Shown here: in pieces, positions 562 through 16,631 of the stretch
Layout of the letters: each line of letters opens with the position of its first letter
Numbering within the stretch: the first letter of the stretch is position 1
Virus record (IMG/VR): IMGVR_UViG_2671181094_000003
DNA from: a virus
Taxonomy: Duplodnaviria; Heunggongvirae; Uroviricota; Caudoviricetes
Strand: one strand, 5' to 3'
DNA length: 17,049 bases
Program-made: the position numbers and the translations under genes
Notes under the pieces: generated by a model
Databases searched by the model: none
What the model saw: the letters and a program-made list of their open reading frames with translations, nothing else
Told to the model about the DNA's origin: nothing

Positions 562-766
562 CATGCCGGGCTAAAAATTTTTCAAATGAATCACGTTCAT
601 TCGCCTCAACTTTGAAATCACAGGTGAAAACGCGCAGAGAATGATTAAGTCCATTTGGACTTCGTTGCTCATAACCATCGCCAAATCTTACAGTTTTTAT
701 CGATGGTTTATTTTCTGTTTTCATTCCATCCTCTGGTAACCAGTGAAATTCTTCCGTATTAGCCAC
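562..766 (-). pseudogene. Lambda gpM-like minor tail protein, 5' fragment truncated by the IS1 insertion at 561/562
   Basis: N-terminus ...FHWLPEDGMKTENKPSIKTVRFGDGYEQRSPNGLN resembles the lambda gpM N-terminus (…VRKVRFGDGYSQRAPAGLN, from memory). The ORF runs straight into the IS1 terminal repeat. GTG start overlaps the tape-measure stop. Confidence 0.75.
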
Positions 767-3700
767 TTAACATTCCCCCATCACGTCGCATATTTAACAG
801 ATTGCCCTGCACCCGCTGATCAACCATCCCCATAAGTGCTTTTATTGCCTGAGGGCCAATCTCTCCATTCTGGCCGTCATTTTGAATAGTGATTTGGTAT
901 ACAGGGGCATAGGTAATATCTCCGCCTCCATTACCACTTTTACTATTAATAGCTCTGACACCAAGAGAACCATCGGAAGTTCGTGTTAATGGCATAATGG
1001 CTTCCGGACCAGCCTCACCAAAAACACCAGCCCCTTTTGCAAAAGCAAAAAATTGCGGGGAATCATAAATACCGTTCGAATACATGTTCAATGACGGAGA
1101 CTCATAAACACCGCCCTTTGCATTCGGAATAAATTTACTAATAGCACTCCCGATAGTTCCTAAAATCCCCCCAGAAGAACTGTTACTAATGCTGTCGAAA
1201 ATCCCAGTAATTGAAGCCTTTAATGCTATTCGACTAAGATCCGAAATCACGGAAGTAGCGAAAGAACGAAAATTTGCCTTGCCTGTCGTGACAAAATCAC
1301 CCAGCGCATCGGTCATTCCATCAAACATCTGAGTCGTGGTTGATTTTATCTGCTCACTGATATCCTTAGTGTCATCCAGCCAGTTATTGAATCCCTGGGA
1401 GGCACCACTAACCCAGTCTCCTGCCTGAATATCGAGCTGCTCGTTTTTCTGTCTGACAATGTCTTTTTCTCGTTCCAGAGCATCATTCAGAGCCTGCATT
1501 TTCTCCTGAAAAACATGATTTGACATCCCACGGGATTTATCTGCATAGTCACGTTCAAGTTGCAGACGCTGATTGTTATATTCACGTTCAATCCGCAGTA
1601 ATTCCTGCTGGCGTTGCTGATTTTTATCGCCAACCCCATAACCAGCAATCTGAATATCATACCCCTGTTGACGATTATCAATCGAAGCCTGCAATGAATC
1701 ACGCCATGCAGCTATTTCGGCGGATTCCTTGATTAGCCTGTTATTTTTTTCAATCGCAACATTTTTCTCCATCAACGCGGTTATTTCTTCCCGGTGTAAG
1801 AGAAGCGATTTCTGATCCTGGGTTAATTTCGATGACGGTCGTGACTCCAGGTTGGCAATCTGCTGACGCCACTTAACCAGTTCCTGTTCAGTGGAACTTA
1901 ATTTAACGGTTAATTCAGTTTGTGAACTTAGTAACGCATTCTGTTGATTCAGATGATCAATCATTCGTTGGGCAGCATCATCCGAATAACCTTTCGCCTT
2001 TGGTTGCTTTGGATCTTTATAACGCTCATTTATTTGAGCGATAAGATTATTATATTCTTCCTTTGAATACTGACTCTTTAGCTTTTCCAGTTTTGCAAGT
2101 TCACTAGCTCTCTGCTGCTCCCGGGTCTGATATTGTTTTGAAAAGGCATCTGCTCTCTGTCTGAGTTCAATTCCTTCCTGTTGTCGCTTGTTGTAATCGT
2201 TTATTGATGAATTTAGTACGTCCTGAGCAATTTTTTCTGCTTGAAGTGCGCCCAATTGCTGCTTTAATCGTGCCAGCCTTTTATTTTGAGCTCCGCCATC
2301 TCCAATGCCACCTAACCCGAAAACTCCGGGTCGGGTATTTTTTTCTATTTCATCAATTTGACGGAGAACATCTGAGATTTTTTGATCAAGGGAGGCCTCA
2401 CGGCCAATATCCAGCATGGAATCCCATGCCCATTTTGCGGAGTCTGCGACAGCTTTCCATGCAGTCTCAAGATAACCAAGATTTTCTTTAATCTGGTTGG
2501 TGCGCTGGATCATTGAGGATGAGTATGCTTCTGTCGCAATGCGGGCGGCCTCCTGCTGGTTCCCTTCATCCTGTAGCGCCTTAATCTGGTTATAAGTCGC
2601 AATTGTCAGAAAATGGTACTGATCATTAAGTTTTGATATGGCACTGACAGGATCCTTTGCAATTTCATTGAAGTCATTAACCAGTTGTTCGGTTGATATT
2701 CCTGTTACTTCGCTCGTTTTTACTATCGCTGTCGTCACTTGCTCCAGCGAACTGCTCGCTACCTTTCCCGAACGCACAAGCTGGTTTAATACTGCCGCCG
2801 CAGCGCCAGTTGTCGAATCAGCCGCATTCCCGGCACGTTGAGCTATATCGGCCAATTGCCCGCTGGTTGTCCCCAACTGATTTCCGGTAAGAATAAGAGA
2901 TTTATTAAATTCGTCCTGCTCCTGAGAGCCTTTATAGTAAGCCAGCCCTAAGACGCCAACGGCTGCTGCGGCCAGGGTAAAAGGATTAATTAATCCCAGC
3001 ACATAAGAACCAACACCTTTGATCGCCGGGCCAATCCCACCGAACATATCTTTTAGCTGGCCGCCCTGCTGCATTAACACCATAAAAGGCGACTGACCAG
3101 TGGACAACCCAACAACAATATCCGTCATTTGTGCAGGCAACATGCGCATAGCAAAAGCCGTTTGTTTTGCCGACATTCCGGTTTTGCTTAATTGAGATTG
3201 AGTAACCTCAAGCTCACTCCGCATAGCACGAAGTTTTCCAGAAAGTTCCTCATACATTTCAGGAGAGAGCATCCCCTTAGCTTTTGCTTCATTGAGCTGT
3301 TTCTGTTGTTCTACCAGACGATTAAAAGCAGTTCCGACAGGGTCAAGTTGAGCAATCAGACGTTGCAAAGCAGCAACCTGTTCATCATGCGCTTTTGCTG
3401 CTTCTCGCTCTGCCTGAGCCTCTCCGGTAAGCTCTCGCCGTGTTTCCTGTATTTTTCGGCTATAATTCTCAAACTGAGAACCATTTATTTTCCCGGATGC
3501 AAACGCAGCATTAAGTTCATCCTGCTGTTGTTCAAGATTTCTTAGCGCCGCAGCCAGAGGGTCGATCTTGTCCAGCATTCTTTGAAAGGCCTGAGCCTGC
3601 GCTTCCTGCTGGGCGGCAGCAAGTTTTCCGGCCTTCTCGGCTTCTCTCTGCGCTTGCGCAACCCCGCTCAATTCCTCTGTGGTTTCATTAAGTTTACGGA

Positions 3701-3992
3701 CAAGAAATTCATATTCTTCTTTATCAATAAGCCCTTTATCGAAAAATTTCTTTAATTCAGAATAGCGTCGACCGACAGTATCAATTGCGGCACCAACTGG
3801 ATCAATAGCTGCTTTTAATTTTGCGAGCGCGTTCTTCTCATCTTCTGTTGCCTTAGTCACTTTCCCTGCGCTATTTGCAGCAGTTTCCCCGGCCTGCGTC
3901 ATTTTGACTAATGAGGAGGTCAGATTGTCAGCATTATTTTTTGCTCCAGTGCTATCAATAATTATTGCGAGACGCGAGGTTTGCTCTGCCAT
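759..3992 (-). CDS. Tail tape measure protein, lambda gpH homolog, 1077 aa
   Basis: Uninterrupted 1077-aa ORF with AGGAG SD 9 nt upstream of the ATG. Segments [11 protein letters not shown]…[17 protein letters not shown] and the C-terminal …[14 protein letters not shown]…[10 protein letters not shown] match recalled lambda gpH motifs. Position follows the G/T chaperone pair. Confidence 0.92.
3164..3806 (-). repeat. Three tandem ~60-80 aa repeats in the tape-measure N-terminal region (residues about 63-277)
   Basis: Protein repeats start [14 protein letters not shown]…, [14 protein letters not shown]…, [14 protein letters not shown]…, each with a G-x-I/L…Y…KL…EL…AQA core. DNA coordinates derived from residue numbers. 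Confidence 0.6.
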
Positions 3993-4005: not shown

Positions 4006-4037
4006 TGACAACAAAAAACCCACCGCGAAGTGGGTTT
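4006..4037 (-). terminator. Candidate intrinsic terminator just upstream of the tape-measure SD
   Basis: Minus-strand RNA AAACCCAC-UUCGCG-GUGGGUUU followed by UUUGUUGU. Lies in a 165-bp non-coding gap between the T-frame stop and the tape-measure start. Confidence 0.45.
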
Positions 4038-4157
4038 CAGGCGACATAATAGTAGATATAGCGATTACGAGGCCACGCAATGCTTTTCTCCAGGAGCATC
4101 ATCGATTTAATTAAAGACACCATCACATCTCTGTAACAGAGTGTACGTAATTAACAA

Positions 4158-4478
4158 CTACACACACTGCTCCTGAAAATACTGGTCATCCAGTGCAAAG
4201 ATCACTGCTTCAAATTCATCGCGCTCAATCAATACCGGATGAGTGGCTAAATATTCATTTATCTCTGTCAGAGATAAAGGCAAAGGCACCCCAGCCATTC
4301 CAGCATAACGTCGGGCACGGGATATTACCGAATAGGCGTACAACAACTCCTTAAGCACCGGGTCTATTTCTGGTTCCGGTATCGGTGGCAACCTGAGTTT
4401 TTCTCGCTTCCATCTTGCCTTTTCCCCCCTTTCTCCCCCGAACTCCGATAACCACCGCTGGGCAGCTATGGCTTTTTT
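4158..4478 (-). CDS. Tail assembly chaperone T segment, expressed only as a G-T fusion by -1 frameshift (no independent start)
   Basis: The -1 frame from the heptamer at 4472-4478 is open through ...AIAAQRWLSEFGGERGEKARWKREKLRLPPIPEPEIDPV... to the stop at 4158. Matches the conserved G/G-T arrangement of long-tailed phages. Confidence 0.65.
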   Translation of the reverse strand, partial: KKAIAAQRWLSEFGGERGEKARWKREKLRLPPIPEPEIDPVLKELLYAYSVISRARRYAGMAGVPLPLSLTEINEYLATHPVLIERDEFEAVIFALDDQYFQEQCV

Positions 4479-4915
4479 ATCGTATCCTGCTTCTGCTGCT
4501 CTTTACCCTGGGCGATGCTGGCTGCTTCTGCAAGGATCTGCCAGTACAACTCTGGATTCTGCTTAAGCAGCGCGATCCCTCGTTCTGCCGTATATTCCAG
4601 TGCAACCTCAACACCATTAACCAGTTCACCAACCCCTTTCCAGTCTTTCAGCAGATAACGAGCGGCATTATCAATGAGTAAATCATCAACAGAATCCACC
4701 TCGGAAACCTTTGAAATATCAAACTCCTTCGTTCCGACGTGCAAACTGGCATCCATTTTCTCAATGTGGCGACGGATTAATGCATTACGGGAGCGATACT
4801 GATCGTTATCGCTGCTTGCCACCAACAGTTTTAACCCGTCTACAGGTTTTAAGTCCTTCATTGGCGTAAACCAGCGTTCTCCACCAATGATAATTTTCTG
4901 ATTAAGAATAAACAT
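4466..4915 (-). CDS. Tail assembly chaperone, gpG-like
   Basis: Position between major tail and tape measure. Ends at the slippery heptamer and TAG. Start placed at the second ATG (4915), which has a GAGG SD 6 nt upstream; the ORF-track start at 4927 is also possible. Confidence 0.7.
   Translation of the reverse strand: MFILNQKIIIGGERWFTPMKDLKPVDGLKLLVASSDNDQYRSRNALIRRHIEKMDASLHVGTKEFDISKVSEVDSVDDLLIDNAARYLLKDWKGVGELVNGVEVALEYTAERGIALLKQNPELYWQILAEAASIAQGKEQQKQDTIKKP
4472..4478 (-). other. Programmed -1 ribosomal frameshift slippery heptamer A_AAA_AAG
   Basis: Minus-strand ...ACG AUA AAA AAG CCA UAG: the heptamer A AAA AAG sits two codons before the G stop in the correct zero-frame phasing. 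Confidence 0.65.
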
Positions 4916-4975
4916 CCATAACCTCATTCAATGCGTCCCCCTGTAGGGCAGTACCACAGGAGGAATAACGGAAAA

Positions 4976-5938
4976 TCAACTAATCGCCTCAGCACTGGCT
5001 TTTGCGATCACGGCAGCCGGGGAATTTTTTTTTCTGGTTATCGTAGGTGCTTCATCTGCTGCGGTAATGCTCAATTGAACCTGGATAATGTCGCTATTAC
5101 CCCCATCAGGCCATTCACCTGACACCTGAACCTTCGGGAAACTGAAAGTGTATGCCCCCTCTCCATTCGAAAGCGTGAAGCTGAACGGAACTGTTTCTCC
5201 AGTCAGTGTTTTACTCCAGATTTCCCACGCGGCTTTAGACCATGAAAGCGTCACCGTACCGGACGGTGTAAAAGTAGTCGGAATATTTGCTCCTGCATAA
5301 GGCGAGCCAGTCCCGATACAACGCTGTGTCTGGAGTTTGTTATCGAACTGAATATCAAAACTGTCGATACAAAAACCGTTACCTCCGGCAACACCATTCA
5401 GGCTTACTGCTGAAACCTCCTTAAACGAATAACGTAGCTTTCCTGCACTATCCACAGGTTCGCCTTTGATAAAATTCGTATCATCGGCCTTTGATTCCCA
5501 GTCCAGTCCGGCAAAGGTTACGGTCGCTGTAATATCGCCGTCGTTAGGGATCTGCATTTTCCATGAGCCAACCTGCGCTCCTCTGACGACAGAGGCAATT
5601 CCGACATCGGACGCATAGGTCGCCAGAGAAAATGTTATTCGCTCATTCCCCATTGTCAGAGAATCGCCTGACCATTCCGCGCCGAAACAGGATGCAAGAA
5701 AATCATCATGTTGACCCCAGCGAAATTTGGTACCAACATCACCGCCGACATCCACAGTGCCAGGCGTCGCCCCCTGAGCCATCCGGGAGCCACCAATCTC
5801 ATTATTTTCGCCTTTATTCTGGGTGGGTTTTACTCCCCAGCTTGTGCGTTTTAATAAACTCCAGTCACCACTTGCTGGCGTAGTGCCTGCAACCGTCTCC
5901 CGGATAAATGCCGAGATAACCTTTGCACCTGAACTCAC
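4976..5938 (-). CDS. Major tail (tube) protein, 320 aa, GTG start
   Basis: Position immediately upstream of the G/G-T pair. Strong SD (TAGGAGG) 6 nt before the GTG. Gly/Thr/Ser-rich beta-type composition typical of tail tube proteins. Not similar to lambda gpV by eye. Confidence 0.75.
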   Translation of the reverse strand: MSSGAKVISAFIRETVAGTTPASGDWSLLKRTSWGVKPTQNKGENNEIGGSRMAQGATPGTVDVGGDVGTKFRWGQHDDFLASCFGAEWSGDSLTMGNERITFSLATYASDVGIASVVRGAQVGSWKMQIPNDGDITATVTFAGLDWESKADDTNFIKGEPVDSAGKLRYSFKEVSAVSLNGVAGGNGFCIDSFDIQFDNKLQTQRCIGTGSPYAGANIPTTFTPSGTVTLSWSKAAWEIWSKTLTGETVPFSFTLSNGEGAYTFSFPKVQVSGEWPDGGNSDIIQVQLSITAADEAPTITRKKNSPAAVIAKASAEAIS

Positions 5939-6734: not shown

Positions 6735-7118
6735 TTACGCTCTCCTTAACTGGATAGAGTAAACTGATGCGGAAGGATCTACACTTGCTGTAATTACCTC
6801 GTATCGTTGTAACTGCCTTGATACAGGATCATAAATCTCAATAATATGGTCGACAGCTGGTTTATCCGTAACCTCGCATACCAGAGCGGTTAATTTAAGG
6901 TCACCATGCAAAATATTAATCCCATCAATTCTGCCCAGCTTATAACGTGTCAACACGCCTCGCCCGGTATAGATTGCGGTGGATTCGCCGCCAGTTTCCG
7001 TCACAGGATCCCAGTGCCGGTGCGTAACGTAAGAACCAGAAAAATCACTCACGGCGTCCGCTAAATCCTCATCAAAAGCAGCGGCAACCTCTGACTGAAT
7101 CTCTTCACGAAGCCCCAT
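6735..7118 (-). CDS. Putative head closure/head-tail joining protein, 127 aa
   Basis: Synteny between the capsid and tail genes. TAATG overlap with the upstream gene. Confidence 0.45.
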   Translation of the reverse strand: MGLREEIQSEVAAAFDEDLADAVSDFSGSYVTHRHWDPVTETGGESTAIYTGRGVLTRYKLGRIDGINILHGDLKLTALVCEVTDKPAVDHIIEIYDPVSRQLQRYEVITASVDPSASVYSIQLRRA

Positions 7119-7513
7119 TATCCCCCCCTCACAACCCTGACTTGTGAGCGACTAAGTCCGTACGGTTTCAGCAGTGCTATCGCAAGCTGTAAATCGGGTT
7201 CAAGCAATGCAGTGCTGTTTGCTGGCAACTCAGAAAATGATTTCGATACACTGACCCCGTCAGCCGACACGGCTTTACTGATAACAACGCCAGAATCATT
7301 TTTCTGCTGAAACAACTTACCGAATGAGGCAATTCTGGCTGCATATGCTCCCGCAAGTTTTACCTCTTCCGGAATACGGGATGGGTTAATTTTCAGGTTG
7401 AAGCCATTAAGCCAGGCATTAGCCATTAAAACAGCTTTATTTTTAGCGTTCTCACTCGTCCAGGCGTTCCCAAACGCATTATCAACGTCATCACAGGTCA
7501 CGTAAGTGATCAT
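7118..7513 (-). CDS. Putative head-tail connector/adaptor protein, 131 aa
   Basis: Synteny: first mid-sized gene after the capsid gene. Tightly packed with neighbours. Confidence 0.45.
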   Translation of the reverse strand: MITYVTCDDVDNAFGNAWTSENAKNKAVLMANAWLNGFNLKINPSRIPEEVKLAGAYAARIASFGKLFQQKNDSGVVISKAVSADGVSVSKSFSELPANSTALLEPDLQLAIALLKPYGLSRSQVRVVRGG

Positions 7514-12347: not shown

Positions 12348-13658
12348 TTAAATCCGAAGTGATGTGCCTCTTCCGGTCGGTTTGACAATAGGGAATTGCT
12401 TAACGATGAAATAACCTCCGGCATCATTCGGGTGATCATTGCCAGATTTTTTATCAGGCTCCCCCTTCTCATCCCAGACCTGTTGCTCCAGAGATTCGGC
12501 ATATAACGGGCAACGCTTCACATTAACTTTATAGCGACGCTCACCATTGGCATTGCAGAACATTGCATTCATTGAGTTAACGCGATCTTTTACTGGCGGG
12601 TTCGAGCTGTTCACCACAACGTTAAAACCAGCCTGCTTAAGCTGGGCTATATCCGTCGTACTTGCGTTACTTGATTTTCTGGAATCCCCGGAAGCATCTG
12701 GATAAATATAAATTTCCCTCACTTTCCGGTAATCATTCCCATCATACAGCCAGAAGCGTTCTTTAATGATGCGGATCATATCCGGCGTATCGTAGGCATT
12801 GATGATTTCAGTTACCGCACATGGAAGCCCCAAACGCAGCACATGGACGATTCCCGCCATCTTTCCAACGTTAAAATCCATCCCAATATAAATCGGCTCC
12901 CCTGGCTGCTCCACTTCTTCGCAATTATTCAGTTTCCGGTCAAACTGATGGTAAACAGTACCACTTGTCAGGTTAGTAAACTGTCCTCGAAGATAGGCTT
13001 TAATCAGCTCTGGAGGGTATGATTCAAGAAGCGAAGGAATGTAATCTGCTGGCAGGTTCTTTTCATTATCGAAAGTAGATGCCTGCACCAGACCATACAG
13101 TGAGGCCAGCTCTGTTTTTTCACGCACGGCTTTAACAAACTGCTCGTAGACAAATTTGAATCCTTCCGGCGTGGTTGTAACGTCAATACCGTTGCGAAGT
13201 CCATCAATCTTATAACGCATACGTGCAATTATCTTGCGCCACGCCGTTCTGGCTTTTTCCTTCGGCAAAATGTCCAGTTCATCCACCAACGCATTACCAA
13301 TTTTGAAACCGACGATCGTTTGTGGCTTCTCCATCGATCTGCAGATAGTGGTTCCCCGATACTGGCGTCCGTAATAAAAGTGAACCTCTTTATTTCCCTC
13401 ATTAATTTTTACGTTCAATCCCCAGTCAGCAGCAACTTCTTCCACTGTAGGGTAAAAAATATCGCGAATTTGGGGATACGTTGGCGCAAAATATCCCTGA
13501 TTTATACCTGGATGCTCCCAAATCCCCTTGCATATGCCGCCACACCCAACCCATGTTTTGCCCGAGCCAAAACCAGCAATATAGGCTTTAAATTTATGGG
13601 GCATTGAAAGAAATCGCGCCTGAGGCACATTAAGCGTCGGAGAGATCATCTTCATCAC
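12348..13658 (-). CDS. Terminase large subunit, about 435 aa
   Basis: Walker A-like GFGSGKTW near the N-terminus. Position between the small terminase and portal. Start is one of three clustered ATGs (13658/13655/13649) just after an AAGGAG SD, overlapping the small-terminase 3' end. Confidence 0.9.
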   Translation of the reverse strand: MMKMISPTLNVPQARFLSMPHKFKAYIAGFGSGKTWVGCGGICKGIWEHPGINQGYFAPTYPQIRDIFYPTVEEVAADWGLNVKINEGNKEVHFYYGRQYRGTTICRSMEKPQTIVGFKIGNALVDELDILPKEKARTAWRKIIARMRYKIDGLRNGIDVTTTPEGFKFVYEQFVKAVREKTELASLYGLVQASTFDNEKNLPADYIPSLLESYPPELIKAYLRGQFTNLTSGTVYHQFDRKLNNCEEVEQPGEPIYIGMDFNVGKMAGIVHVLRLGLPCAVTEIINAYDTPDMIRIIKERFWLYDGNDYRKVREIYIYPDASGDSRKSSNASTTDIAQLKQAGFNVVVNSSNPPVKDRVNSMNAMFCNANGERRYKVNVKRCPLYAESLEQQVWDEKGEPDKKSGNDHPNDAGGYFIVKQFPIVKPTGRGTSLRI

Positions 13659-14724
13659 TCCTTACTCTGGCATCAACCACATTAATTTTGATCGCCACAG
13701 GCTGGGGATGTTCATTATCTTCCACCGTTTCGATCTCTTTGCGCAGCTTCTGGTTTTCCATTCTGCGCCGTTCAATTTCCAGTTCCTGTAGCCGCTTATC
13801 TGCACATAAAGCCCCGCCAGCAGAAAGCAAACGCAACAATTCACGCCGGGCGGCAGCCTTATCCTCCAGCAGGATCTCAACGCCGAATTTTCCGAATTTT
13901 GCCCCTGCATATAATTGCCGCGCATCCCCATCAAGCAGAGTGGTATCAGCCATATAAAGCTGTCCCGTTCCCTCACCGCAGCACTTCGGGCAGTCCGGAT
14001 TGGGTATGGCGTTATCAACAAAGCCGAGGCCTCCATATTCCGGTTCGGGTTTGCCATCTCTGGAAGCCTGCGCCGCTGCCTTGTCGAATTCTGCTATATC
14101 GCGCCACTGGTAGAGATGATTCTCGCCCCAGCAATAACGGCAGTTAACACGGCGAAATTGTGCAAGCTGATTGGGGTCGGCCAGGACAATGGCCATCAAC
14201 TGACTCACTAGTAAATCCAGGTCTGCGGTATAGCGTTTCTGGTACTGATTGCGGAAGTAGCTGATAGCGCGAAAAACCCTGGCATTTCTAAGCATACGAC
14301 TGGCGTTGCTGTTAGCTGTCGCACCTTGCCCCTCATAACCGGCTAGTCGGTACGCCTCTGTCGGCTTTTTACCCTGAGCAACAAGCATCGCAAACTTAGC
14401 CTGCTGGTCAGAAATGCCGAATTCATCGGGACAGAACGAAAATTCCTCCGCGTCGCCCTCATTCAGGCCCGCATCGAATACTGGCTTTTTTTCCTGAGAT
14501 TTTTCGTTCCGCTTTTGTGCAGTCTGCGCAGATTTTTTCTGCGCACTTTTTTGCGCAGTTTTGCGCATTTCTGTCTGCGCATTTTTCGGAGTTTTTTTGA
14601 TGTAACGACGGGCTGTTGCGTAATTCAGTCCCCTTGCTTCACACCATGCCACCGGAGATATACCGGAGCGGGTGTATTCAGCAATATACTCCTGCTGCAA
14701 CGCCCCCCAGTCCGGTCTGCTCAT
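13630..14724 (-). CDS. Terminase small subunit, unusually long (364 aa): N-terminal HTH, Lys-rich linker, Terminase_2-like core, Cys4 cluster
   Basis: The segment ISDQQAKFAMLVAQGKKPTEAYRLAGYEGQGATANSNASRMLRNARVFRAI matches the recalled small-terminase signature (Q..F…TEAY..AGY…A…LL.N..V..AI). Position is directly upstream of the large terminase. Confidence 0.75.
   Translation of the reverse strand: MSRPDWGALQQEYIAEYTRSGISPVAWCEARGLNYATARRYIKKTPKNAQTEMRKTAQKSAQKKSAQTAQKRNEKSQEKKPVFDAGLNEGDAEEFSFCPDEFGISDQQAKFAMLVAQGKKPTEAYRLAGYEGQGATANSNASRMLRNARVFRAISYFRNQYQKRYTADLDLLVSQLMAIVLADPNQLAQFRRVNCRYCWGENHLYQWRDIAEFDKAAAQASRDGKPEPEYGGLGFVDNAIPNPDCPKCCGEGTGQLYMADTTLLDGDARQLYAGAKFGKFGVEILLEDKAAARRELLRLLSAGGALCADKRLQELEIERRRMENQKLRKEIETVEDNEHPQPVAIKINVVDARVRSDEDDLSDA
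14525..14581. repeat. Five copies of the palindromic hexamer TGCGCA interleaved with T-tracts, inside the small-terminase coding region
   Basis: TGCGCA at 14525, 14540, 14552, 14562 and 14576, with T-runs of 4-7 nt between them. Encodes the low-complexity AQK-rich linker (…KTAQKSAQKKSAQTAQK…). Confidence 0.5.
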
Positions 14725-14937: not shown

Positions 14938-15847
14938 CCGGCACGCTGCCAGAGACTCGACTTTCGAATACGGAATCATTTGTCACCCCCATTGATATGC
15001 AGGGTGTCTTCTTCCTGTATTTTTCGTGAAGGATTTTTACTGCAGCGTTGTTCCAGGTGACCTGATGGTGAATGCGTTTATGGCTGGCACCCATCAGTGA
15101 AATTTTTACGCACGACGGCGCATACATGACGGAGTAAAAACTTTTAACGTAGGTTCCGGAATCCAGATACAGCTCGGTCATTCCGCCGCTGTTTTTCTGC
15201 GTCTGTTTCTGCCCTAACTGGACAGCACCGATCGTCATAAACAATTCACCACAGCGACCGAGATTCGTGTACGTATTCACATCCTCGTTAATGCGCCCCA
15301 TGAATGAGAACGGTCGATCAACCGAACAGATAAAGCTGTTCATTGCCTTGCGTTTCACCCACGAAGCATGGCCGCCATTGTCACCAAGAAAATCCCCGCC
15401 CTGCGACATAGCGATGGAAAGAGCAGGTATTGATTCGTAGTACGCCAGCATTTCAGAAAGGATCGCATCCAGTTTCCTTATCGGAAAATAGGCCTGGTCA
15501 TAGTTGCGATCCACCCGAAACTGGAACTCGTGATAATCATCATCGAGCTGAATGAAGTATTTACACCCGACCAGTTTTGCCAGGTCAAAACAGGCATTAC
15601 GGGCGTAAAAAATTGAGCGGCGGTCACAGAAATTATCGGCTTCGTCAAAACGACTGGCGATATCGGCTTTGGAAAACACCAGCACCTGTTCACCAAATTC
15701 AGCCATGTACTGATGCCGTGTCTTATCTTCATCATCAACAACGATAAAAATTTTCCCGGTATAGCCAGCACGACGCAACGTCCGGTAAGTCAGAACTTTG
15801 TCTGGTCGCCCGTGAGTCAGAATAAAGGCGCAAAAATCATCACGCAT
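14915..15847 (-). CDS. Hypothetical protein, ~310 aa, with GT-A glycosyltransferase-like motifs; substrate unknown
   Basis: ATG at 15847 has an AGGAGG SD and overlaps the ParB-like stop in ATGCGTGA. Motifs FILTHGR…IFIVVDDEDKT and YFIQLDDDYHE resemble the GT2 signatures (…PTYNR…VVDDGS.D, DxD). No obvious transmembrane segment. Assignment from motifs only. Confidence 0.5.
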   Translation of the reverse strand: MRDDFCAFILTHGRPDKVLTYRTLRRAGYTGKIFIVVDDEDKTRHQYMAEFGEQVLVFSKADIASRFDEADNFCDRRSIFYARNACFDLAKLVGCKYFIQLDDDYHEFQFRVDRNYDQAYFPIRKLDAILSEMLAYYESIPALSIAMSQGGDFLGDNGGHASWVKRKAMNSFICSVDRPFSFMGRINEDVNTYTNLGRCGELFMTIGAVQLGQKQTQKNSGGMTELYLDSGTYVKSFYSVMYAPSCVKISLMGASHKRIHHQVTWNNAAVKILHEKYRKKTPCISMGVTNDSVFESRVSGSVPDDCTTNR

Positions 15848-16631
15848 ATTCCTCCTCCTCACCACCATGCATGATCTCCACCATGCGCTGCGTCATCCGG
15901 ACAAATCCATTTTCAATAGCCTGCTGATAATCAATGATCACCAGCGCCGACTCCTCGAAAAAACACTGAATTTCAGCGGGGGCGTGAGCGTAATAGTCCG
16001 CAATTCTGCTGAAATTAAACACCGTGTGACGTTCTGCCGCACACAGGAGGAATTTCTCAATATCAGGCTCAAGGGACGCCGAACGTATCCGGCTGATCAG
16101 CTCCTGAGTTTTCGTATCGTCGTACAGTTCACTGATATCCGGTTTACCGCCCGACGGCTCATAAACAGGCGTATCAATTTTCGTCGTATACGGCTCCTCC
16201 TCATTTCCTGTACCGGGCACAACATCCGTCAACAGTTCATCAATTTCTGTCGGGATGAAGCCTGTCAGGGAGACATCAAAATCAGCATTGATTAGGTCCG
16301 ACAGCTCCATCCGCAACAGATCTTCATCCCAGCCAGCATTCATCGGCAGGCGATTATCTGCCAGGCGGTACGCCTTTTTCTGCTCATCCGTCAAGCCAGA
16401 CAGAACAATGACCGGAACAGAATCCATTTTGAGCATTTCAGCCGCCATAACACGACCGTGACCCGCAATAATTTCGCCCTTTTCGTCAATCAGCACCGGA
16501 TTAGTCCAGCCGAATTGCTTAATACTTTCTACCAGTTGTGCCACCTGCTCAGGGCTGTGCGTCCTGGCGTTGTGCGCATACGGTGACAATTCTTGTAATG
16601 GGCGATAGACTATCTTTAATTTCTCGCTCAT
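15840..16631 (-). CDS. ParB-like N-terminal-domain (ParB/Srx fold) protein, 263 aa
   Basis: N-terminal region …YRPLQELSPYAHNARTHSPEQVAQLVESIKQFGWTNPVLIDEKGEIIAGHGRVMAA… has the ParB-N pattern with a G-H-G-R motif. AAGG SD 6 nt before the ATG. Confidence 0.8.
   Translation of the reverse strand: MSEKLKIVYRPLQELSPYAHNARTHSPEQVAQLVESIKQFGWTNPVLIDEKGEIIAGHGRVMAAEMLKMDSVPVIVLSGLTDEQKKAYRLADNRLPMNAGWDEDLLRMELSDLINADFDVSLTGFIPTEIDELLTDVVPGTGNEEEPYTTKIDTPVYEPSGGKPDISELYDDTKTQELISRIRSASLEPDIEKFLLCAAERHTVFNFSRIADYYAHAPAEIQCFFEESALVIIDYQQAIENGFVRMTQRMVEIMHGGEEEEYA

Follow-up and report, generated by a model that had tools for sequence, protein, structure and literature searches.

A predicted lambda-like -1 frameshift in the ydaY-type tail assembly chaperone genes of Escherichia coli phages and prophages

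Tailed phages of the G/GT class make a protein G together with a fusion protein, GT, with G in large excess, and both are needed for the formation of tails while being absent from the virions. The -1 frameshift of this class is textbook material (Levin, Hendrix & Casjens 1993; Xu et al. 2004, 2013, 2014; all as cited in PMC5009743). An E. coli example using the heptamer A_AAA_AAG is the pair ECs1801/ECs1802 of prophage Sp9 in O157:H7 Sakai, which belongs to the cluster A_AAA_AAG_25 and is given as a true case (Sharma et al. 2014, PMC4066793). The ECs1801 cluster was mapped to GeneTack cluster #10 (PMC4066793 Table S7), which we infer to be the HK97-like cluster assayed by Antonov et al. 2013 (PMC3711429); there, two E. 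coli prophage tail-chaperone genes showed 6-7% frameshifting. The same heptamer is used in the E. coli dnaX cassette, where it is combined with an upstream SD-like element and a downstream stem-loop and reaches an efficiency of about 50%.

Here we analyse a stretch of 17,049 nucleotides of Caudoviricetes DNA (IMG/VR record IMGVR_UViG_2671181094_000003), below called the window, in which two overlapping reading frames, G and T, occupy positions 4158-4915. A sequence-only reading of the window had proposed that the two are joined by the -1 recoding known from tail chaperones. This proposal is supported by the slip site in 118 of 119 distinct junctions, the position next to the tube and tape measure genes, the match to PHROG 313, and the selection acting on the -1 frame. 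From these comparisons we predict that G/T is, with high probability, decoded by a lambda-like programmed -1 ribosomal frameshift with tandem slippage of tRNA-Lys.

The DNA around G/T is 100% identical to the isolated Salmonella phage SPF_0923 (ON032529), which has a complete structural module, and several E. coli siphoviruses match the window at 98% identity. The genes follow each other in the order ParB-like, glucosyltransferase-like, small terminase, large terminase, portal, head morphogenesis, scaffold-like, major capsid, Ad1, Hc1, Neck1, tail terminator, tail tube, G, T and tape measure. The G/T pair is thus flanked by the tube and tape measure genes, as the class requires, see Table 1.

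Table 1. Coordinates of the G/T pair, its signals and its neighbours in the window.
Feature	Position	Strand	Description and basis
Tail tube (major tail) protein gene	4976..5938	-	Upstream neighbour; PHROG 290, E 3e-112; RefSeq 'phage tail tube protein'
SD-like GAGG	4922..4925	-	6 nt upstream of the G start codon; sequence reading
Gene G, tail assembly chaperone (predicted)	4466..4915	-	149 aa, start ATG 4915, stop TAG 4468-4466; translation
Slippery heptamer A_AAA_AAG	4478..4472	-	In the X_XXY_YYZ phase of G; predicted -1 tandem-slippage site
Local hairpin	4445..4471	-	Begins 0 nt after the heptamer; not conserved, probably not a stimulator
T segment	4158..4471	-	104 codons + stop in the -1 frame; AIAAQRWLSEFGGE...QEQCV*
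Predicted G-T fusion CDS	join(4915..4472, 4472..4158)	-	252 aa; G(1-148) + 104 residues
Tape measure protein gene	759..3992	-	Downstream neighbour, 1077 aa; PHROG 24, E 0; GenBank annotation ON032529

Profile searches agree with this position. G alone matches PHROG 313, 'tail assembly chaperone', with an E-value of 4.9e-46, and the predicted fusion covers positions 20-246 of the 258 in the same profile (E 8.2e-51). T alone instead matches PHROG 1189 (E 1.4e-36), a family of unassigned function that evidently collects stand-alone calls of the T segment. No Pfam-A match was found for G in a set that did not contain PF27119, the label that its homologs carry in precomputed annotation, and T reaches 20.7 bits against Phage_TAC_18, under the cut-off of 27. 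Neither protein has an NCBIfam match, and the Pfam families of lambda gpG and gpT show no significant similarity to G or T. Structurally, the AlphaFold model of G (pLDDT 71) matches no PDB fold at E < 0.7, and a sequence profile search of the PDB was empty. In BFVD, the model aligns best to predicted structures annotated as tail or tape-measure chaperones, with TM-scores of 0.45-0.56 and E-values from 2e-4 to 2e-2, and several of these matches are 230-270 aa long. As matches to the lambda families and the PDB are absent, the proposed chaperone mechanism rests on the position, the PHROG labels and these modest BFVD fold matches. Gene order and PHROG 313 together support the identity of G/T as a tail assembly chaperone.

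Gene G is the intact form of the E. coli protein 'YdaY'. Its initiator methionine at ATG 4915 is invariant in 18 homologs and marks the conserved start, while an in-frame ATG further upstream, at 4927, is an alternative start but not the conserved one. At the 3' end the zero frame reads GAT ACG ATA AAA AAG CCA TAG, i.e., the AAG of the heptamer and the stop codon are separated by the single sense codon CCA. This agrees with the earlier description of A_AAA_AAG lying two codons before the stop of G. The -1 frame had been described as open for about 105 codons, which is also correct: it is open from 4502 to 4158, between a TAA at 4505-4503 and the TAG at 4160-4158, and this corresponds to 106 codons from the first AAA or 104 codons past both lysines. 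The predicted fusion reads ...DTIKK/AIAAQRW... over the junction, and the corresponding junction peptide would be ...QDTIKKAIAAQR.... T has no start near the junction, as had been noticed. The first ATG, GTG or TTG of the -1 frame after the slip is a TTG at codon 29 (4391), and it is from this non-canonical start that T appears in the ORF track as a separate 77-aa ORF. A second candidate start, TTG 4343, has an AAGGAG 3 nt before it.

The heptamer by itself is no more than chance would provide, as AAAAAAG is found 5 times in the window with 5.5 expected; it is the arrangement that goes beyond chance. The 17 genes of the window contain 26 in-phase X_XXY_YYZ heptamers, two of which run into a long -1 ORF, and the G/T site is the only A_AAA_AAG among them. 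The other long extension follows a G_GGG_GGA at 7127, which was rejected as a recoding site, being the SD and the TAATG overlap of the next gene. From any codon in the window the -1 frame stays open for a median of 7 codons, and for at least 105 codons at 1.4% of positions. The reality of the slip site is settled, as far as comparative evidence goes, by its conservation in homologs.

To obtain these homologs, GTDB genomes and IMG/VR were scanned. The conserved motifs of G were present at 175 loci, which contain 122 distinct junctions, 119 of which can be evaluated. The set is phylogenetically redundant, with just 16 T sequences that stay below 85% identity among themselves. In all 119 evaluable junctions the heptamer position lies 8 codons past an invariant IAxGK motif, and at this codon 118 have either A_AAA_AAG (112) or G_GGA_AAG (6). 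The latter six junctions come from seven loci in Raoultella, Serratia, Tatumella and metagenomic phages, and the one remaining junction, from Pectobacterium, has the non-canonical G_GGG_AAG. The heptamer is hence not lacking in homologs but kept, including the switches to the lambda-type sequence. The first base of the heptamer is the synonymous wobble position of the preceding Ile or Val codon, and it is an A (ATA or GTA) together with AAA_AAG but a G (GTG) together with GGA_AAG. The second lysine codon, in the A site, is AAG in every junction and never AAA. The zero-frame stop, on the other hand, shifts among homologs and is found 2, 3, 9, 27 or 37 codons past the site. Even so, 116 of the 119 junctions keep the -1 frame open over 100 codons or more; in a few loci T is interrupted and its frame reaches 41, 52 or 63 codons. 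A 35-nt deletion found in E. coli NB16F79 is predicted to give GT only.

More distant relatives were searched for by tblastn against GenBank phages. At the equivalent local motif, the Acinetobacter phages TCUAN1 and TRS1 have G_GGA_AAG and the Pseudomonas phages phiPSA1 and Aurca01 have G_GAA_AAG. In Erwinia phage Gungnir39 the site is C_GCA_AAG, which keeps only A_AAG and is followed directly by TAA. All in all, slip site and open -1 frame are kept in Escherichia, Citrobacter, Klebsiella, Raoultella, Serratia, the Pantoea group, Tatumella, and phages of Acinetobacter and Pseudomonas.

How the T frame is entered can be judged from its evolution. Conservation of the T protein sets in right at the first codon past the slip (KK[AV][IL][EA]AQxWLxEFGGExGEK), and the first 26 codons past the slip site hold no start codon. 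We sorted codon differences by frame among the 16 sequences whose T parts fall below 85% identity. In codons 3-28 the synonymous share is 57% in the -1 frame, compared with 13% and 8% in the zero and +1 frames, and for the rest of T it is 55% in the -1 frame vs 8% and 6% in the other two. Variability is maximal at the third position of the -1-frame codons. Judged by these differences, purifying selection acts on codons 3-28 past the slip in no frame but the -1 frame, and we infer that the -1 frame is translated straight from the slip site. If a stretch without an initiation codon is translated in the -1 frame, the frame change has to occur inside the 12-codon overlap of the two frames, where A_AAA_AAG is the sole slippery motif.

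The same data bear on the possibility that T is an independent gene, with TTG 4391 or TTG 4343 as its own start, used by initiation or by coupling once G has terminated, so that the heptamer would be incidental. This is how gene callers treat it, with a 61-aa CDS from 4343 in GenBank ON032529 and a 77-aa ORF from 4391 in RefSeq; PHROG 1189 is likewise built from stand-alone T calls, and an AAGGAG lies 3 nt before TTG 4343. However, the spacing of 3 nt is too short for an SD, the AAGGAG coincides with K-E codons and is missing in other lineages, and neither start is conserved: the TTG at codon 29 is missing in most lineages, TTG 4343 behind its AAGGAG is not conserved either, and the first -1-frame start codon lies at codon 50 or 60 in 56 of the 119 distinct junctions. 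Further, the 26 codons before TTG 4391 are conserved as protein and show a -1-frame selection equal to that of the rest of T. We therefore consider an own start of T, for which no conserved start codon or SD was found, to be very unlikely.

Under the favoured reading, a ribosomal frameshift in the tail module of a Rac-type siphovirus, most ribosomes would read G to its TAG and release the 149-aa protein, while a minority would slip. The tRNA-Lys on AAA in the P site and the one on AAG in the A site would both re-pair one base back, to AAA AAA, and the -1 frame would resume with GCC to give the 252-aa G-T fusion. By analogy to lambda gpG and gpGT, G and the G part of GT may coat the tape measure protein and the T part may recruit the tail tube protein, and the slippage frequency would set the large excess of G over GT. 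Thus the chaperone roles of G and T are ascribed here from the lambda precedent.

A change of frame could in principle also be made in the transcript, if the RNA polymerase slipped on the A6 run and added one A to a part of the transcripts. A homopolymer exists here, and transcriptional slippage can take place on poly-A tracts, but it is efficient only at runs of about 8-9 or more (PMC3711429), while the run here is A6. In addition, the A6 is replaced by GGGAAAG, with only A3, in the six junctions (seven loci) with the lambda-type heptamer and in the Acinetobacter relatives, with the X_XXY_YYZ phase kept. Such a phase-specific pattern is the signature of tandem tRNA slippage, and we give the slippage of the polymerase even less credence than an own start of T. 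The least credible alternative is that the heptamer arose by chance or that the site, in prophage-like DNA, is decaying or no longer functional, so that the G/T overlap would serve no present function. In favour of it, E. coli K-12 Rac carries the same DNA as a truncated remnant (ydaY), a few T frames are interrupted as described above and AAAAAAG occurs at chance frequency. Against it, an isolated phage whose structural module is complete matches the window at 100% identity, and the site, the open -1 frame and the selection signatures are kept across many genera.

In dnaX, the slippery sequence is assisted by other signals. The sequence-only reading had proposed RNA folding as a way to look for a downstream stem-loop or pseudoknot; no conserved structure was detected. 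The 99 nt 3' of the heptamer fold no better than shuffled sequences (z = -0.32), and RNAalifold across 16 homologs gives essentially no consensus structure (-2.5 kcal/mol). The local hairpin that starts right at the heptamer was rejected as a downstream stimulator; its spacing is 0 nt, and it is not kept in diverse homologs, with only 57% of cells paired across 16 of them. On the upstream side, an AGGA is found 6 nt before the heptamer in the window and many relatives. It was not accepted as an SD stimulator, as it coincides with Gln-Asp/Glu (Q-D/E) codons and is missing in several lineages, and a conserved SD about 10 nt upstream of the heptamer was not found among the homologs. Directly 3' of the heptamer, 107 of the 119 junctions have a CC dinucleotide, whose bases are also under coding constraint; of the 3' contexts, CC is reported to be the one most prone to shifting (PMC5009743). 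From the comparison of homologs we conclude that a conserved dedicated stimulator is absent, as is thought to be the case for lambda G/GT, and a dedicated RNA stimulator appears not to be needed here.

By analogy with the measured sites, a frameshift frequency between a fraction of a percent and a few percent would be expected. In an E. coli reporter, the bare heptamers without stimulator gave 0.29% for A_AAA_AAG vs 0.28% for G_GGA_AAG; with the IS911 stimulator the values were 4.3% vs 3.8%, and with the IS3 stimulator 39% vs 43% (PMC4066793 Table S3). The interchange of A_AAA_AAG and G_GGA_AAG at one codon in the YdaY-type family fits these near-identical efficiencies.

The variants seen at this codon in near and distant relatives are A_AAA_AAG, G_GGA_AAG, G_GAA_AAG, C_GCA_AAG + stop and G_GGG_AAG, and only the A-site AAG is invariant. 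It can be speculated, although we regard it as rather doubtful, that the slip sites of the YdaY-type family, all at the same homologous codon, make up an allelic series that exists in nature. If so, variants with differing but compensated G:GT ratios would test how tightly the chaperone ratio has to be set, and a candidate for the compensator would be the terminator-like hairpin that recurs in the gap behind T, before the tape measure gene, and lies at 4038-4015 in the window. In addition, the family would show if slippage of a single tRNA on A_AAG is sufficient in vivo.

The locus is very common. Among 5,426 complete E. coli genomes, 1,073 contain identical DNA, with G under the name 'protein YdaY'. 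In current records G and T are annotated as two unrelated hypothetical proteins, T being called as a TTG-start ORF of 61-77 aa, and RefSeq leaves G only 119 aa as 'protein YdaY', an annotation taken over from the truncated remnant in K-12 Rac. Slippage is annotated in none of the GenBank and RefSeq records of the phage group of the window, and none of the literature searched links ydaY with frameshifting or tail assembly. This makes G/T a new, unannotated case of a known class. Its recognition gives the orphan ydaY a predicted function, as a tail assembly chaperone, and returns a predicted 252-aa product to the proteome of these phages. The main value lies in correcting how this gene pair, which is very common in E. 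coli prophages, is annotated. The family also provides a clean evolutionary example of A_AAA_AAG and G_GGA_AAG being interchangeable at one site, while the understanding of recoding or of tail assembly is unchanged by it.

Among the known systems, dnaX shares with G/T the heptamer and the same slippage logic of tRNA-Lys(mnm5s2UUU) (PMC5009743). However, in contrast to dnaX, the G/T site has neither a conserved SD nor a downstream hairpin, its shifted product is longer and not shorter, and a low efficiency is expected. The sequence-only reading had set the heptamer apart as dnaX-type instead of lambda's. The identity of the heptamer, A_AAA_AAG, is confirmed, but it is not unusual in this role, as it is documented for ECs1801 (PMC4066793).

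ECs1801 is similar to G both in its site, with A_AAA_AAG within one or two codons of the G stop (it ends in AGA AAA AAG TAG), and in its position between the tail tube and tape measure genes of an E. coli prophage. It differs in size, with a G of 124 aa and a fusion of 226 aa compared with 149 and 252 here. That G belongs to the ECs1801 family was considered and rejected; the proteins are unrelated, with no BLASTP alignment at E <= 100.

A distant homolog is instead found in the Acinetobacter phage vB_AbaS_TRS1 (TRS1_18/TRS1_19, NC_031098), whose T part is 39% identical (E 4e-6). Its slip site lies at the equivalent motif, DIVGKS compared with DTIKKP here, and a joined CDS with slippage is already annotated as tail assembly chaperone in its RefSeq record. 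Unlike the site in the window, it uses G_GGA_AAG, and its zero frame runs for 26 codons past the site.

Finally, lambda gpG/gpGT differs from G/T in the heptamer, which is A_AAA_AAG here, and in sequence, as similarity to the lambda proteins is not detectable. Further, T and the tape measure gene lie 165 nt apart here, with a terminator-like hairpin in the gap, unlike in lambda. Still, the arrangement is the same. Both loci have two overlapping ORFs between the major tail and tape measure genes, an in-phase heptamer near the end of the first ORF, and a -1 extension of about 100 codons without its own start, and in neither is a dedicated RNA stimulator evident. The heptamer of lambda itself, G_GGA_AAG, is used at the same codon by some of the YdaY-type relatives.

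The slippery heptamer of G, the tail assembly chaperone gene, is replaced in several relatives by non-canonical sequences at the homologous codon. In Pectobacterium odoriferum the site reads G_GGG_AAG, and the -1 frame stays intact over 115 codons. G_GAA_AAG takes its place in the Pseudomonas phages phiPSA1 and Aurca01, where the -1 frame is intact as well. In Erwinia phage Gungnir39 the site is C_GCA_AAG with a TAA immediately after it, i.e., an A_AAG tetramer plus stop; for this phage the analysis of the -1 frame covered its start after the slip.

One allele lacks the site. Two copies of a 10-bp direct repeat, GCAGAAGCAG, lie close to the end of G, and the 240-aa protein P0001 of E. coli NB16F79 corresponds to a 35-nt deletion between them, which joins G in frame to T, the -1-frame segment, and removes the slip site. 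This allele is a natural "GT-only" form.

Among the other in-phase heptamers of the window, G_GGG_GGA lies three codons upstream of the stop of the connector gene Ad1, and its -1 frame is open for 130 codons; it is no recoding site, being the G-rich Shine-Dalgarno sequence together with the TAATG overlap of the next connector gene, Hc1. A second A_AAA_AAG falls at codon 78 of 364 in the small terminase ORF. Slippage here would yield a truncated product, because a stop closes the -1 frame after 10 codons, and this heptamer is probably incidental. In the tail tube gene, which has 320 codons, an A9 run spans codons 302-304. The run is 7, 8 or 9 nt long in relatives, its alternative frames close within 6-15 codons, and RefSeq marks the tube gene of strain 64.1 as "frameshifted". 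The run could be prone to indels or to slippage during transcription.

Downstream of T, a 165-nt gap precedes the tape measure gene. This gap, within the late tail operon, holds a terminator-like hairpin, GAAACCCAC-TTCG-CGGTGGGTTTT followed by a T-run. In 9 of 16 diverse homologous loci, T is likewise followed by a GC-rich hairpin and then a T-run. In several loci the equivalent gap carries insertions of 450-1440 nt, which suggests a moron insertion site.

Coordinates of the features (window positions unless a locus is named)
Feature	Position	Strand
G from its ATG (149 aa)	4466-4915	minus
G as called from TTG 4825 (119 aa)	4466-4825	minus
Same call, L184	4676-5035	
GCAGAAGCAG copies	4487-4496; 4522-4531	minus
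T stop to tape measure start	4158 to 3992	
Hairpin	4015-4038	minus
Tail tube gene	4976-5938	
A9 run	5025-5033	minus
Hc1	6735-7118	
G_GGG_GGA	7121-7127	minus
Small terminase ORF	13630-14724	
Second A_AAA_AAG	14485-14491	minus
ParB-like ORF (263 aa)	15840-16631	
Putative Rac deletion	~4817 to ~16373	
ynaK-ydaY, L185	2749-3352	
Non-canonical slip site, L012 (P. odoriferum; = L117)	2920	
Non-canonical slip site, L183	~1985	
Non-canonical slip site, L181	~440	

In E. coli K-12-type Rac prophages, ynaK directly abuts ydaY, the local name of G, and the first 86 aa of the ParB-like ORF of the window correspond to ynaK (98% identity). Together, the junction and this match imply that about 11.5 kb was lost from K-12-type Rac. 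Such a deletion would have taken the terminase, portal, head, connector and tube genes as well as the first ~33 codons of G; despite it, the slip site is still present in K-12. In intact prophages the RefSeq/PGAP call for G is a "protein YdaY" starting at TTG, while the ATG is the conserved start in 18 homologs. The shorter call was apparently copied from the 5'-truncated K-12 Rac remnant.
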